Under the pieces are notes generated by a model. It made no database searches and was not told where the DNA came from. It saw only the letters and a program-made list of their open reading frames with translations. From the NCBI RefSeq assembly GCF_988242995.1, contig NZ_OZ547043.1: DNA of 64,000 bases; one strand, written 5' to 3'. Each line of letters opens with the position of its first letter. Position 1 is the stretch's first letter. The translations under genes and the position numbers were made by a program. This document shows, one piece after another, positions 3,579 through 11,132 of the stretch.

Positions 3579-4226
<648 letters not shown>

Positions 4227-5620: not shown

Positions 5621-6136
5621 ATGAAAAAAATTGCATGTCTTTCAGCACTGGCCGCAGTTCTGGCTTTCACCGCAGGTACTTCCGTAGCTGCGACTTCTAC
5701 CGTAACTGGCGGTTACGCACAGAGCGACGCTCAGGGCCAAATGAACAAAATGGGCGGTTTCAACCTGAAATACCGCTATGAAGAAGACAACAGCCCGCTG
5801 GGTGTGATCGGTTCTTTCACTTACACCGAGAAAAGCCGTACTGCAAGCTCTGGTGACTACAACAAAAACCAGTACTACGGCATCACTGCTGGTCCGGCTT
5901 ACCGCATTAACGACTGGGCAAGCATTTACGGTGTAGTGGGTGTGGGTTATGGTAAATTCCAGACCACTGAATACCCGACCTACAAACACGACACCAGCGA
6001 CTACGGTTTCTCCTACGGTGCTGGTCTGCAGTTCAACCCGATGGAAAACGTTGCTCTGGACTTCTCTTACGAGCAGAGCCGTATTCGTAGCGTTGACGTA
6101 GGCACCTGGATTGCCGGTGTTGGTTACCGCTTCTAA
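5621..6136 (+). CDS. ompX: Outer membrane protein X
   Basis: MKKIACLSALAAVLAFTAGTSVA signal peptide followed by a beta-barrel sequence ending ...GVGYRF; 171 aa. Confidence 0.95.
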   Translation: MKKIACLSALAAVLAFTAGTSVAATSTVTGGYAQSDAQGQMNKMGGFNLKYRYEEDNSPLGVIGSFTYTEKSRTASSGDYNKNQYYGITAGPAYRINDWASIYGVVGVGYGKFQTTEYPTYKHDTSDYGFSYGAGLQFNPMENVALDFSYEQSRIRSVDVGTWIAGVGYRF

Positions 6137-6151
6137 TCACTTCGGTGATAT

Positions 6152-6185
6152 AAAAAATCCGCCTCTCGGGGCGGATTTTTTGTTT
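6152..6185. terminator. Bidirectional rho-independent terminator between ompX and opgE
   Basis: AAAAAATCCGCC-tctcg-GGGCGGATTTTTTGTTTT: 8-bp GC stem flanked by an A-run and a T-run. Confidence 0.75.
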
Positions 6186-7768
6186 TAAGGTTTCGGGTCG
6201 AAAATATCGGTTCCGAGATGGTTGTAATCCACCTTCTGTAACTGGAAGTTGGTGATGTATATCGGCCCGGCTTTCTTCTCAGATATAAACGGGTATTTGA
6301 TGTTAATTTCCTTCGCTTTAATTCCCGTCCACTGGGAGAAAAAGCCTAAGAAGTCATTGGCAGAGCGGCGGGCTTTAATCACCCGATGCGCTTTATCGTC
6401 GCTCGAAATGACCATAAAAGGCACCTGGAAATTTTGCTGATATTTATCATCATGGGCAAGGTATTGCACGTCTTTGCCGCGCTCTTTAAAGGCCAGACCG
6501 TGGTCAGAAAAGTAAACCAGCGAGAAGCTACTGCCGCTGTTGCGTAACTGATCGTACAGCTTACGCAATAAATCGTCCGTTTGCGTCATGGTATAGAGAT
6601 AGCACGACGTTTCTTTCGATTGCACAAAGGTTTCGTATTTGCCTTGTGTCCGGTCGCAAGCTTGCGGATGTGAGCCCATCAGATGTAAAACAATCAGCTG
6701 CGGTTGCGAGTGCTCTTGTGCCAGCACTTGAGCGGTCATATCCAGTAACGCTTCGTCTTTCGTGTTTTTATCTGCTTCAAAATTACCTTCTTTCAGGAAG
6801 TACACTTCATCTGCACGTTTGGCGATGCTGGCGATGGCTGTATCGTATTCGCCGATTTGGCCCTGGTTGGAAAACCACCAGGTCTGGAAGCCCGCGCGAT
6901 TTGCCAGGGTGACAAAGTTATCCTGAAACTGTGGTTTGCCATCGACTACGCGATTGAGCGTTAAGCCAAGCGATTTCTGCGTGGAGCCACTGGCGGCAAT
7001 GTAGTCAGCAAATATCAAACCGTTAACGCTGCTGGCAAACGGGGTATTGTCCCAGTGACCGCCAAAGGCACCGAGGGCATCGCGACGCGCGCTTTCACCG
7101 ATCACCACCACATAGGTCTGATACTTCGGCTTAACGGCAGTGACCGTCCAGGTATCTTTCATTCCGGAAAGTTTTGCCATCCGTTCTTGCTCTTCAATCA
7201 CCTCGTTATTATTGACGATGACATCCTTAGCAAAACGAAATACCGGATAGCCAGTATCTTTCAGTTTAAATACGCCGCCCCAGGCCAGGTTTTGCACGGG
7301 AGCAACAAAAAATGTCGCCACACTGAATACCAGACACAGGCTATCGAAGGTATTCCAGCGCGCTTTTTCACTCTCTTTTTTTCGCCGGATTGCTATTACG
7401 CCGAGCGCAAAAATAAATAAGCCGACCAGGTAGCTGTACCACGGAAAAATCGTCAGGATTTCGGTCGACTCTTCCATATTGGTGGAGTGCAATGCCAGCA
7501 ATGTATTGAAGTTAGGCGCGCCGTAGGCCTGAGCAAAAGGGAAATAACAAGCCGCCACCAGCGAACTGACACCGACCAGAACTTTTTGTACGCGAGGCAA
7601 TGTTCGCCATAGCAAAAGCAAAATAGCCGTAAACGCAGCGGTGTAAAGCAAACTGAAGGGATAACCTAAGCCGAGGTTAATTAATAGCGACTGTAAAAAG
7701 TAGAACGCAGTCCACGGGCTAAATACCCGGCTACGGGTAACAAGCGATTCTTTGAGGGTTAAATTCAT
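6185..7768 (-). CDS. opgE: Phosphoethanolamine transferase for osmoregulated periplasmic glucans
   Basis: 527-aa ORF with an N-terminal multi-TM domain and a C-terminal sulfatase-like domain; matches YbiP/OpgE. Confidence 0.9.
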   Translation of the reverse strand: MNLTLKESLVTRSRVFSPWTAFYFLQSLLINLGLGYPFSLLYTAAFTAILLLLWRTLPRVQKVLVGVSSLVAACYFPFAQAYGAPNFNTLLALHSTNMEESTEILTIFPWYSYLVGLFIFALGVIAIRRKKESEKARWNTFDSLCLVFSVATFFVAPVQNLAWGGVFKLKDTGYPVFRFAKDVIVNNNEVIEEQERMAKLSGMKDTWTVTAVKPKYQTYVVVIGESARRDALGAFGGHWDNTPFASSVNGLIFADYIAASGSTQKSLGLTLNRVVDGKPQFQDNFVTLANRAGFQTWWFSNQGQIGEYDTAIASIAKRADEVYFLKEGNFEADKNTKDEALLDMTAQVLAQEHSQPQLIVLHLMGSHPQACDRTQGKYETFVQSKETSCYLYTMTQTDDLLRKLYDQLRNSGSSFSLVYFSDHGLAFKERGKDVQYLAHDDKYQQNFQVPFMVISSDDKAHRVIKARRSANDFLGFFSQWTGIKAKEINIKYPFISEKKAGPIYITNFQLQKVDYNHLGTDIFDPKP

Positions 7769-8039
7769 ATGCCACTATCGTAACAAACGCCATGTGCTTA
7801 CCCTGGCGTCAAGGGTCAATACCTGCAAGAGTGCGTGGAGAGGGGAAAGGGGTCCGCATCCGCGAGCCGCAATATACGCAGGGCTGCAAGAAGATAGAGC
7901 GAGCTGCCGTTCAGGTCAACTACTGACGAACAAATCTTTTGCGAAGGGGATTGCAAATCCGACAAAAAGTGGGGTTTTTCAGACCAAAACGCGTCGTGCC
8001 TGCATAAAAGCAGGAGTGAAGCGGCGTACCGCGACGCCG

Positions 8040-8168
8040 CTATTTATCGGAAGGTTTATCTTGCTGCGGTTTGTTGTTGACCATATCGCACAACATAGAG
8101 AGCAGCATTAACCGTACTTTAAAGGGAGAATGACTAAACACGCGCATACACCTCTTGAACTCATTCAT
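8040..8168 (-). CDS. mntS: Small protein MntS (42 aa), manganese homeostasis
   Basis: Minus-strand translation gives MNEFKRCMRVFSHSPFKVRLMLLSMLCDMVNNKPQQDKPSDK*, preceded by a strong SD (AGGAGGTC). Too short for the ORF track. Confidence 0.9.
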   Translation of the reverse strand: MNEFKRCMRVFSHSPFKVRLMLLSMLCDMVNNKPQQDKPSDK

Positions 8169-8226
8169 AAGACCTCCTGACTTGCTAATCCCGTCGATCC
8201 TTGAGGGATGATTGCATTACATACAG

Positions 8227-8260
8227 ATATAGCACAGGCTATATTATATAGCTATTGCTA
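8227..8260. promoter_or_regulatory. MntR operator boxes upstream of mntS
   Basis: ATATAGCACAGGCTATAT (palindromic arms ATAGC/GCTAT) and an adjacent ATAGCTATTGCTA, 60-90 bp upstream of the mntS ATG; resembles the MntR box (ATAGC-N4-GCTAT). Confidence 0.6.
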
Positions 8261-8353
8261 AAACGTTAATTTTTTGTACCTTCGCAACTCTGGTTTACAA
8301 TGTGCGCACGAAATGAGAACGCTATGTATGCGTCACCATAATGAGGAAGCACA

Positions 8354-8821
8354 ATGAGTCGTCGCGCAGGTACGCCAACAGCAAAAAAAGTGACGCAGTT
8401 AGTGAACGTGGAAGAGCACGTTGAAGGGTTCCGCCAGGTCAGAGAGGCGCATCGGCGCGAGCTTATTGATGATTACGTTGAGCTGATTTCTGACTTGATC
8501 AGGGAAGTGGGGGAAGCTCGTCAGGTAGACATGGCTGCTCGTTTGGGAGTTTCGCAACCGACGGTGGCTAAAATGCTTAAGCGACTGGCAACCATGGGGC
8601 TGATTGAAATGATCCCCTGGCGTGGCGTGTTTTTAACGGCAGAAGGAGAGAAGCTGGCGCAGGAAAGCCGCGAGCGACATCAGATAGTCGAAAATTTCTT
8701 GTTGGTGTTGGGCATCAGTCCGGAAATCGCCCGTCGCGACGCGGAAGGCATGGAGCACCATGTTAGTGAAGAGACGCTCGACGCTTTTCGTTTGTTTACC
8801 CAGAAACACGGTGCCAAATGA
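8354..8821 (+). CDS. mntR: Mn(II)-responsive transcriptional regulator (DtxR family)
   Basis: 155-aa [48 protein letters not shown]...; matches MntR. Confidence 0.95.
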
Positions 8822-9936
8822 GCCTGCCTTTTTTACGCACGCTGCAAGGCGATCGTTTTTTTCAGTTATTAATTCTTGTTGGTATCGGATTAAGCTTTTT
8901 CGTGCCTTTTGCACCGAAATCCTGGCCTGCTGCTATCGACTGGCACACCATCATCACCTTAAGCGGCCTGATGCTGCTGACCAAAGGTGTGGAGTTAAGC
9001 GGTTATTTTGATGTGCTGGGGCGCAAAATGGTGCGTCGCTTTGCTACGGAGCGTCGGCTGGCGATGTTTATGGTGCTGGCGGCGGCGCTGCTTTCTACCT
9101 TTCTGACCAACGATGTCGCGCTGTTTATTGTTGTTCCGCTGACTATCACGCTAAAAAGACTGTGTGAGATCCCGGTTAATCGGCTGATTATTTTTGAAGC
9201 GCTGGCAGTCAACGCTGGTTCGCTACTGACGCCAATTGGCAACCCGCAAAATATTCTTATCTGGGGACGTTCTGGTCTTTCGTTTGCCGGATTTATTGCC
9301 CAAATGGCACCGCTGGCTGGCGCAATGATGCTGACACTCCTGCTGTTGTGCTGGTGTTGTTTCCCTGGAAAGGCGCTGCAATACCATACGGGGGCGCAAA
9401 CGCCGGAGTGGAAACCGCGGCTGGTGTGGAGTTGTCTGGGGCTGTATATCGTTTTTCTGACGGCGCTGGAGTTAAAACAAGAGCTGTGGGGACTGGTGAT
9501 TGTGGCGGTGGGCTTTGTGCTGCTGGCACGTCGCGTGGTGCTCAGTGTGGACTGGACGCTGCTGCTGGTGTTTATGGCGATGTTTATCGACGTCCATTTA
9601 CTGACCCAGCTTCCAGCGTTGCAAGGTGTGTTGGGTAACGTGAGTCATTTATCTGAACCCGGGTTATGGTTAACGGCAATCGGTTTATCGCAGGTGATCA
9701 GTAACGTGCCGAGTACCATTTTGCTGCTCAATTATGTACCGCCGTCTTTATTAATGGCATGGGCGGTAAACGTGGGGGGCTTTGGTTTATTACCCGGATC
9801 GCTGGCAAATTTGATTGCGTTACGGATGGCGAACGATCGCCGTATCTGGTGGCGTTTCCATCTCTATTCAATACCGATGCTGTTGTGGGCGGCGCTGGTG
9901 GGATACGTTTTGTTGGTTATGATCCCGGCCTGGTAG
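8818..9936 (+). CDS. ybiR: Putative anion transporter (ArsB/NhaD-type permease)
   Basis: 372-aa polytopic membrane ORF overlapping the mntR stop (ATGA); matches YbiR. Confidence 0.9.
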
Positions 9937-9945
9937 GGTCTGGCA

Positions 9946-9984
9946 AATAAAAAAGGCGGATGATGAGTCCGCCTCTGTTTTACG
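9946..9984. terminator. Bidirectional terminator between ybiR and ldtB
   Basis: AAAAAAGGCGGA-tgatgag-TCCGCCTCTGTTTT hairpin with flanking A-run and T-run. Confidence 0.7.
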
Positions 9985-9993
9985 TTTTGACGA

Positions 9994-10914
9994 TTAATTC
10001 AGACGAACCGGCATCCCGGAACGATTTTTGATCGCTTCATCCAGAACAACCTGGTCAACATCTGGCTGACCGGTCACTGTCTGCACGCTCTTCGTCAGGG
10101 TAATTGGCACAATTTCCTGACCTTCAAACTGGGCTTCTGTGGTAGACAGCGGGTTATGGACTTCAATGTAACGGCTGCCGTCTGGCTCGGTGGTCGCTTT
10201 TACCGGCTCATCAATAAACTGTACGCGAGTACCGACCGGCACTTTCTCGAACAGGAATTTGATGTCTTCGTTACGCAGACGCACACATCCATGACTTACG
10301 CGCAGGCCGATACCGAAGTTGGCGTTGGTGCCATGGATAGCGTACAGGCGACCGATGTAGAGTGCATACAGCCCCATCGGGTTATCCGGACCAGCCGGAA
10401 CGACCGCCGGAAGCGGTTCGCCCGCAGCGCGGTACTCTGCGTGCATTTTGGCGGTCGGCGTCCAGGTCGGGCCTGCTTTCTTACGCTCAACTTTGGTGGT
10501 CCAGTTGATAGGCGTGTCTTTGCCTAACTGACCAATGCCGATCGGCAGCACGATAACGGTGTTGGTCCCTTTCGGATAGTAATACAGACGCATCTCTGCA
10601 CTGTTAATGACGATGCCTTCATGAACGGTATCCGGCAGGATCAGCTGCTGCGGAATGTTCAGTACAGTACCGCCTTTCGGCAGGAAGGTATCCACACCCG
10701 GGTTCGCTTCCATCATATTGGAAAGCCCCATCTGGTACTCGGCGGCAAAATACTCCAGCGGCTGAGTGTTACCTTCAGGAATGGTGATCACCTGATTCTG
10801 ACCAACCAGGCGACTCCCGTCGGTTGGCAGAGGATAAGTTACCGCAGAGGCGGTACTGCAAAAGCCGACAACAGCGAAGGCCGCTGCGAATAATGTTTTC
10901 AATTTCATATTCAT
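9994..10914 (-). CDS. ldtB: L,D-transpeptidase (YkuD domain), links Braun lipoprotein to peptidoglycan
   Basis: 306-aa ORF with signal peptide; catalytic motif read as SHGCVRL; matches YbiS/LdtB. Confidence 0.95.
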
Positions 10915-11132
10915 GTTAAGCGAGATTTTGTGCCTGGCAGGCCATTGGGTTGAGAATATTAGAGTATTGGAAGCGCATTATAAGTTCATTCCAGCTCACA
11001 GTGAAATCAGATGTGTACGAAATCACATTTTTTGCCTTTGGCTTGAGTGTAGACCTTAAGCGAGGAGCAGGATCTTCTTTCAGACTTATGGCATAATGCG
11101 CGGTTTGTCATATCTCTTTTCAGGATACGCCT

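Follow-up and report, generated by a model that had tools for sequence, protein, structure and literature searches.

The DNA analyzed here, a stretch of 64,000 nucleotides to which we refer as the window, is part of an E. coli chromosome and carries dps, rhtA, yliM, ompX, opgE, mntS, mntR, ybiR and ldtB in this order. Window coordinates are K-12 MG1655 coordinates minus 844829. A 591-bp region was matched at a threshold of at least 95% identity in 5421 of 5426 complete E. coli genomes; its best RefSeq matches were 99.7% identical and, among the matches listed, the RefSeq records have mntS and mntR annotated under the match. The K-12 record holds both the coding sequence mntS (b4705) and the non-coding RNA rybA (b4416, 852725..853064).

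The original prediction had placed a 42-codon ORF with a strong Shine-Dalgarno sequence on the minus strand, divergent from mntR, and had identified it as mntS. All of these features were confirmed (Table 1). The ORF begins with ATG and its translation, which is the peptide quoted in the prediction, is exactly MNEFKRCMRVFSHSPFKVRLMLLSMLCDMVNNKPQQDKPSDK. It shares 100% identity with K-12 MntS (b4705) and scores 96 bits, against a cut-off of 36, with the NCBIfam equivalog model NF033226 small_MntS (E = 6.3e-28, residues 1-39). No match was obtained in a Pfam search of the ORF, the local copy of which is without an MntS model; PF26599 is precomputed on every homologue. The MntS motif MNEFKRC...FSHSPFKVRLML...C(D) lies in a stand-alone ORF, within the size range of about 40-44 aa. 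In the alignment of MntS proteins, residues M1, N2, E3, K5, R6, C7, V10, F11, H13, S14, P15, F16, V18, R19, L20, L22, K33 and P34 are invariant; conservation reaches at least 90% at C27 and D28. The polar C-terminal tail, KPQQDKPSDK, is without an AXA cleavage site.

Table 1. Features of the mntS-mntR locus in window coordinates
Feature	Position	Strand	Basis or remark
mntR, Mn-sensing DtxR-family regulator that would bind the boxes	8354..8821	+	NF008273, 268.8 bits vs cut-off 153
mntS CDS, 42 codons + TAG stop	8040..8168	-	identical to K-12 MntS; selection data
Shine-Dalgarno AGGAGG, 4 nt 5' of ATG	8173..8178	-	sequence and conservation
RybA transcript carrying mntS, 340 nt in K-12 annotation	7896..8235	-	rybA b4416
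mntS 5' UTR, 67 nt	8169..8235	-	5' end from K-12 rybA annotation (853064)
Small 5' UTR stem-loop, tentative	8188..8209	-	covariation and minimum-energy fold
Terminator-like GC hairpin including the stop codon	8020..8041	-	fold energy and conservation
MntR operator box 1, ATATAGC-ACAG-GCTATAT, perfect 7+4+7 palindrome	8227..8244	.	-9 to +9
MntR operator box 2, ATATAGC-TATT-GCTAAAA, imperfect	8246..8263	.	-28 to -11
-10 hexamer TATAAT of the mntS/rybA promoter	8243..8248	-	7 nt upstream of annotated 5' end

Paired MntR operators over the mntS promoter

The palindromic ATAGC...GCTAT boxes that had been predicted in the mntS promoter are real. Box 1 (ATATAGCACAGGCTATAT) follows the 18-bp pattern ATATAGC-N4-GCTATAT at every position and box 2 (ATATAGCTATTGCTAAAA) at all but two, and their centres are 19 bp apart. 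The same pair was found by a repeat search as two 15-nt arms, 8230-8244 and 8246-8260. The end coordinate of the original prediction, 8260, had to be corrected, as box 2 reaches 3 bp further. Both boxes agree with the E. coli-type MntR operator core, (A/C)ATAGC-N4-GCTAT(G/A)T. In K-12, the core TAGC-N4-GCTA is also carried by the mntH promoter (AAACATAGCCTTTGCTATGTTT) and by two sites upstream of mntP, and it is invariant when the boxes of mntS, mntH, mntP (two) and dps are aligned. When mismatches were allowed in a loose version of the pattern, five copies were found in the 64-kb window against 1.4 expected, a weak enrichment of about 3-fold; 4 of 100 shuffled sequences reached five.

We aligned the DNA of nine genera, that is, the window and eight loci from other genera, all eight of which keep the ybiR-mntR <-> mntS-opgE order. 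No other part of the region is as conserved as box 1, in which 16 of 18 positions are invariant (12 of 18 in box 2), compared with 46% of positions in the coding sequence and 8-37% in the flanks and other non-coding parts. The -10 hexamer reads TAWAAT in most of the nine genera and is combined with a poor -35; the missing good -35 accounts for the absence of a call for the mntS promoter in our consensus scan. Relative to the 5' end of K-12 rybA (8235), the boxes span -28 to +9, bracket the TATAAT hexamer and cover the start site, a geometry that would fit repression by exclusion of RNA polymerase.

The identification of the boxes as paired MntR operators agrees with PMC11275975, which credits mntS with two MntR sites overlapping its promoter (Waters et al. 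2011) and places the mntP sites more than 20 bp apart; both the pairing at mntS and the spacing at mntP were found here. MntR dependence, which had also been predicted, is documented in the literature by a PmntS-egfp reporter that Mn represses in the presence of mntR but not in its absence (PMC9806134). In B. subtilis, according to PMC11275975, the MntR operators of mneP and mneS are likewise 18-bp inverted repeats with adjacent sites spaced as at mntS, and this similar spacing suggests cooperative binding of dimers. The B. subtilis arrays activate exporter genes from upstream, whereas the mntS pair lies over the core promoter and mediates repression.

Another palindrome with the exact MntR core, ATAGCACCGGCTAT, was observed in the dps promoter at 4132-4145 (18-bp site 4130-4147), where it precedes the start codon of dps (3579..4082, minus strand; K-12 b0812) by 50-63 bp. 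It is in keeping with the repression of dps by MntR that PMC5553809 attributes to Yamamoto et al. 2011 (its ref. 81). With the mntS boxes, this palindrome points to two MntR-regulated promoters in the window, about 4 kb apart.

On the other side of the operators, we noted a candidate mntR promoter on the plus strand, consisting of TTGTAC (8274-8279), a 16-nt spacer and TACAAT (8296-8301). The consensus scan did not pick it up, its -35 matching 3 of 6 positions; the TACAAT region is invariant in the nine genera and is present in Rahnella as well. The candidate -35 and box 2 are separated by 11 bp, the two promoters stand back-to-back, and the predicted starts are about 70 bp apart. With this layout, bound MntR-Mn, or loss of RNA polymerase from PmntS, could alter transcription of mntR-ybiR, by autoregulation or by promoter competition. 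Downstream, mntR and ybiR overlap by their stop and start codons (ATGA, 8818-8821), an overlap kept in 8 of 8 other loci, which suggests that mntR is translationally coupled with ybiR, encoding a CitMHS-family putative anion transporter.

Function and origin of the MntS protein

Translation of the ORF, which the original prediction had also proposed, has been demonstrated in published work. The peptide VFSHSPFKVR, corresponding to residues 10-19 of the ORF in the window, was detected by targeted mass spectrometry in low Mn only, at about 6000 copies per cell, and was absent in an mntS deletion strain (PMC12529367). Chromosomally tagged MntS was likewise seen under Mn limitation, MntS raises cellular Mn, and its overproduction is toxic when Mn is present; this overproduction phenotype is lost upon frameshift at F11 or F16 and is independent of Hfq (PMC4361602). 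According to a preprint by Wright et al. (bioRxiv 10.1101/2023.06.02.543501), MntS of K-12, to which the protein in the window is identical, binds the Mn exporter MntP and acts as its inhibitor; the toxicity of MntS depends on MntP, and self-association of MntS in the presence of Mn may release MntP. The preprint also describes MntS as less hydrophobic than ancestral signal peptides and possibly soluble. MntS resembles MgtS, AcrZ and SgrT, as described in PMC12529367 and the preprint, in being shorter than 50 aa, induced by a specific stress and bound to a larger membrane transporter. It has no sequence relationship to these proteins, and its target is MntP.

An earlier hypothesis held that MntS is a manganese chaperone or a stimulator of MntH import, rather than an inhibitor of MntP. 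It accommodates the rise in intracellular Mn and the aid that MntS gives to MntR repression of mntH (PMC4361602, PMC8632737), and C7, H13, C27 and D28, invariant or nearly so, could bind metal. However, the Fig. 9 legend of Martin et al. counts against this hypothesis, and so do the MntP requirement of MntS toxicity and the direct MntS-MntP binding described by Wright et al. We therefore consider a chaperone or MntH-directed role very unlikely and retain inhibition of MntP as the function of MntS.

Wright et al. further propose that the signal peptide of a SitA linked to MntR gave rise to MntS. In our hands, a one-pass MntS profile search of 1.84 billion representatives returned 33 short proteins only and no full-length SitA. 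The link to SitA came solely through one match of 50 aa, P0145, the frameshifted N-terminus of a Rahnella SitA, in which FSHSPFRLRLML precedes a hydrophobic stretch and AQA; when P0145 itself was used as the query, two short proteins only were found. The P0145 ORF is divergent from mntR and leads, across an A9 frameshift, into a ZnuA-family ORF, after which come an ABC ATPase and two permeases.

In the Rahnella sequence (Logan SRR18067521, locus L013, 1859-2811), sitA is split into ORFs of 50 and 267 aa by a frameshift in the A9 run (GGAAAAAAAAAGT). Either an assembly error or a genuine slip in the homopolymer could account for the split; in the latter case, a SitA signal peptide would have been caught in the course of turning into a stand-alone ORF.

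Intact Rahnella SitA has 317 aa, and the MntS profile aligned with its residues 5-42 with an hhalign probability of 97.4% (E = 9.6e-12), the two proteins having FSHSPF-(K/R)-(V/L)-RLML in common. SitA keeps a hydrophobic core, the cleavage motif AQA and a ZnuA-type mature domain of 270 residues and is followed by sitBCD, whereas the ORF in the window stops at residue 42 with a polar tail, without AXA, and is followed by opgE. We considered whether the ORF in the window is itself SitA and rejected this assignment, as there is no ZnuA-type domain or sitABCD operon and the signal-peptide region alone is homologous. With homology confined to that region, MntS would be a derivative of SitA and not SitA. 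The likeness extends to the DNA upstream. Between mntR and sitA, Rahnella has the box 1 core and spacer of mntS (ATAGCCTGTGCTAT), a second, degenerate box 19 bp away in the sitA promoter, as in the window, and a CATTGTAAACCA block that is also found in the window. From the shared core, second box and CATTGTAAACCA block, the promoter seems to have been inherited along with the peptide. At the level of sequence, the Rahnella mntR-sitABCD locus thereby reproduces the published proposal that MntS may have descended from a SitA signal peptide.

The RybA transcript and its reading frame

Seven transcript species of 205 to about 400 nt, with one common 5' end, have been described for this locus (PMC4361602). 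The original prediction had bounded the feature at 8040-8260; the extent of the ORF stood, and the transcript was found to run well past 8040. In the 5' UTR, the tentative stem-loop had 83% of its cells paired, and three of its six pairs were changed on both sides among the nine sequences, with compensatory changes CCC/GGG, GCC/GGC and UUC/GAA across genera. Its covariation score was 0.273, compared to 0.136 for shuffles, of which 5 in 500 reached 0.273. Covariation support from these nine sequences is modest.

The terminator-like hairpin folds with -21.9 kcal/mol over a 56-nt stretch (z = -3.05) and is kept in eight of nine genera. In E. coli it is followed by UUCACUCC, not by a U-run, and this weak U-tract explains why a strict terminator scan came back empty; it also fits the read-through transcripts of 205 to about 400 nt (PMC4361602). 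The hairpins of Klebsiella, Kosakonia, Enterobacter and Trabulsiella carry a U-run (UUCAUUUUU), whereas E. coli does not, and the missing U-run suggests that termination of mntS may be leakier in E. coli. Beyond the hairpin, the 3' part of the transcript is 8% invariant and is the least conserved stretch across the nine genera. Over a length of 216 nt, the transcript fold was no more stable than shuffled sequence (z = -0.54). An Rfam search of 7500-8600 at a permissive threshold found no RybA family; its sole match, a snoRNA inside mntR (E = 0.67), was rejected as chance.

The reading frame on this transcript is conserved as a protein-coding sequence. A homology search recovered 136 MntS homologues, essentially all of 38-75 aa; those with a source name are called MntS and represent Escherichia, Shigella, Salmonella, Citrobacter, Klebsiella, Enterobacter, Kosakonia, Kluyvera, Trabulsiella and Silvania. 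In the nine-genus alignment, a purine-rich, AGGAGG-like Shine-Dalgarno sequence occupies the same position in 9 of 9 genera, all indels within the ORF are multiples of three, and variable sites are distributed over codon positions 1, 2 and 3 as 19, 12 and 34 of 41 codons. This excess at the third position reproduces the published statement that silent substitutions predominate in mntS (PMC4361602). Values of dN/dS against E. coli (Nei-Gojobori) ranged from 0.085 to 0.236 across the nine genera. Selection on the encoded protein is thus clearly purifying.

These results bear on the 340-nt non-coding RNA, rybA, that the K-12 annotation places over the mntS locus. If RybA were mainly a non-coding regulatory sRNA, the 42-codon ORF would be incidental or secondary. 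Such a role would accord with the reported repression of aroF and aroL by RybA under peroxide stress (Gerstle et al. 2012, as cited in PMC4361602 and PMC11878033) and with the modest covariation of the 5' UTR hairpin, and Martin et al. allow for an sRNA role of RybA in other contexts (PMC4361602). Against it stand the protein-level selection on the ORF, the detection of MntS by mass spectrometry (PMC12529367) and the frameshift mutants, which lose a phenotype that does not depend on Hfq (PMC4361602). The poorly conserved 3' part past the hairpin, the unremarkable fold of the 216-nt transcript and the empty Rfam result likewise argue against it. We regard a mainly non-coding RybA as extremely improbable, and read the transcript as the mRNA of mntS, which may or may not have a separate sRNA role besides; our data weigh neither for nor against the latter.

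By its length, the ORF is not remarkable: 80 ORFs of 20 aa or more are found over positions 6000-11000, a 5-kb stretch. As the loose boxes are also weakly enriched only, the case for mntS rests on other evidence: it is set above chance by its family HMM score, its conservation across genera, its codon-position pattern and the presence of the box at other MntR targets. Among ORFs of at least 30 aa, only mntS is present in all nine intergenic regions. Two other ORFs, one antisense of 119 aa (7752-8111, plus strand) and one of 49 aa with a TTG start (7816-7965, minus strand), were rejected as they are not kept as ORFs across genera. A functionless chance ORF beside a chance palindrome, which the abundance of short ORFs and the roughly 3-fold enrichment of the loose box might have suggested, is ruled out by nine-genus conservation, the curated HMM score and the published experiments.

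The consensus scan did detect a promoter-like site for opgE. Downstream of mntS, on the minus strand, we observed a promoter-like sequence with TTGACC (7919-7914), a 17-nt spacer and TATCTT (7896-7891). Its two hexamers are largely invariant in the nine genera (GTTGA and TATCTT fully so), and upstream of them lies an inverted repeat that is invariant as well, TTTGC (7957-7953)...GCAAA (7942-7938). Judged from these motifs, 7891-7957 (minus strand) is probably the opgE promoter with a putative regulator site. The annotated 3' end of K-12 rybA (window 7896) falls inside the -10 of this promoter-like sequence. It is conceivable, though rather unlikely, that the paired MntR operator acts in both directions, closing an autoregulatory loop on mntR, and, separately, that a leaky mntS terminator gives rise to Mn-dependent read-through into opgE.

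MntS in the control of manganese export

Taken together with the literature, our analysis indicates that the locus is almost certainly E. coli mntS, carried on the RybA transcript under an MntR operator, and that its product inhibits MntP. Compared with the K-12 mntS/rybA locus (Waters, Sandoval & Storz 2011; Martin et al. 2015; Wright et al. 2023/2024), the protein is identical, and the neighbours, their orientation and the paired 18-bp MntR sites overlapping the promoter are all alike. We found no difference; the window carries the K-12 gene in a different E. coli strain.

How the locus would respond to manganese can be outlined from the ORF and its Shine-Dalgarno sequence, the position of the operator over the promoter, the purifying selection and the conserved synteny, all of them observed here, and from the literature on MntR/Mn repression, the presence of the MntS protein and the MntS-MntP interaction. 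With sufficient cytoplasmic Mn(II), Mn-loaded MntR dimers would occupy the two adjacent 18-bp inverted repeats. Since these sites extend over both the -10 hexamer and the start of transcription (-28 to +9), bound MntR would block RNA polymerase, and we infer that repression occurs by such steric exclusion. When Mn is scarce, MntR would be off the DNA and PmntS would produce an mRNA of about 205 nt together with longer read-through species, from which the strong Shine-Dalgarno sequence would drive translation of the 42-residue MntS. MntS would then bind and inhibit the exporter MntP, so that the cell retains its remaining Mn. As Mn rises again, self-association of MntS is proposed to release MntP.

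The original prediction had labelled this locus as known biology, and correctly so. The gene mntS, its control by MntR and its target MntP are already published and annotated in RefSeq; there is nothing new in them, and the finding carries little weight as a discovery. Its value is that of a positive control, in which a sub-50-codon gene and its operator were recovered from sequence alone, and in which the Shine-Dalgarno sequence, the codon-position pattern across genera and the conservation of the operator separate mntS from the chance ORFs nearby.
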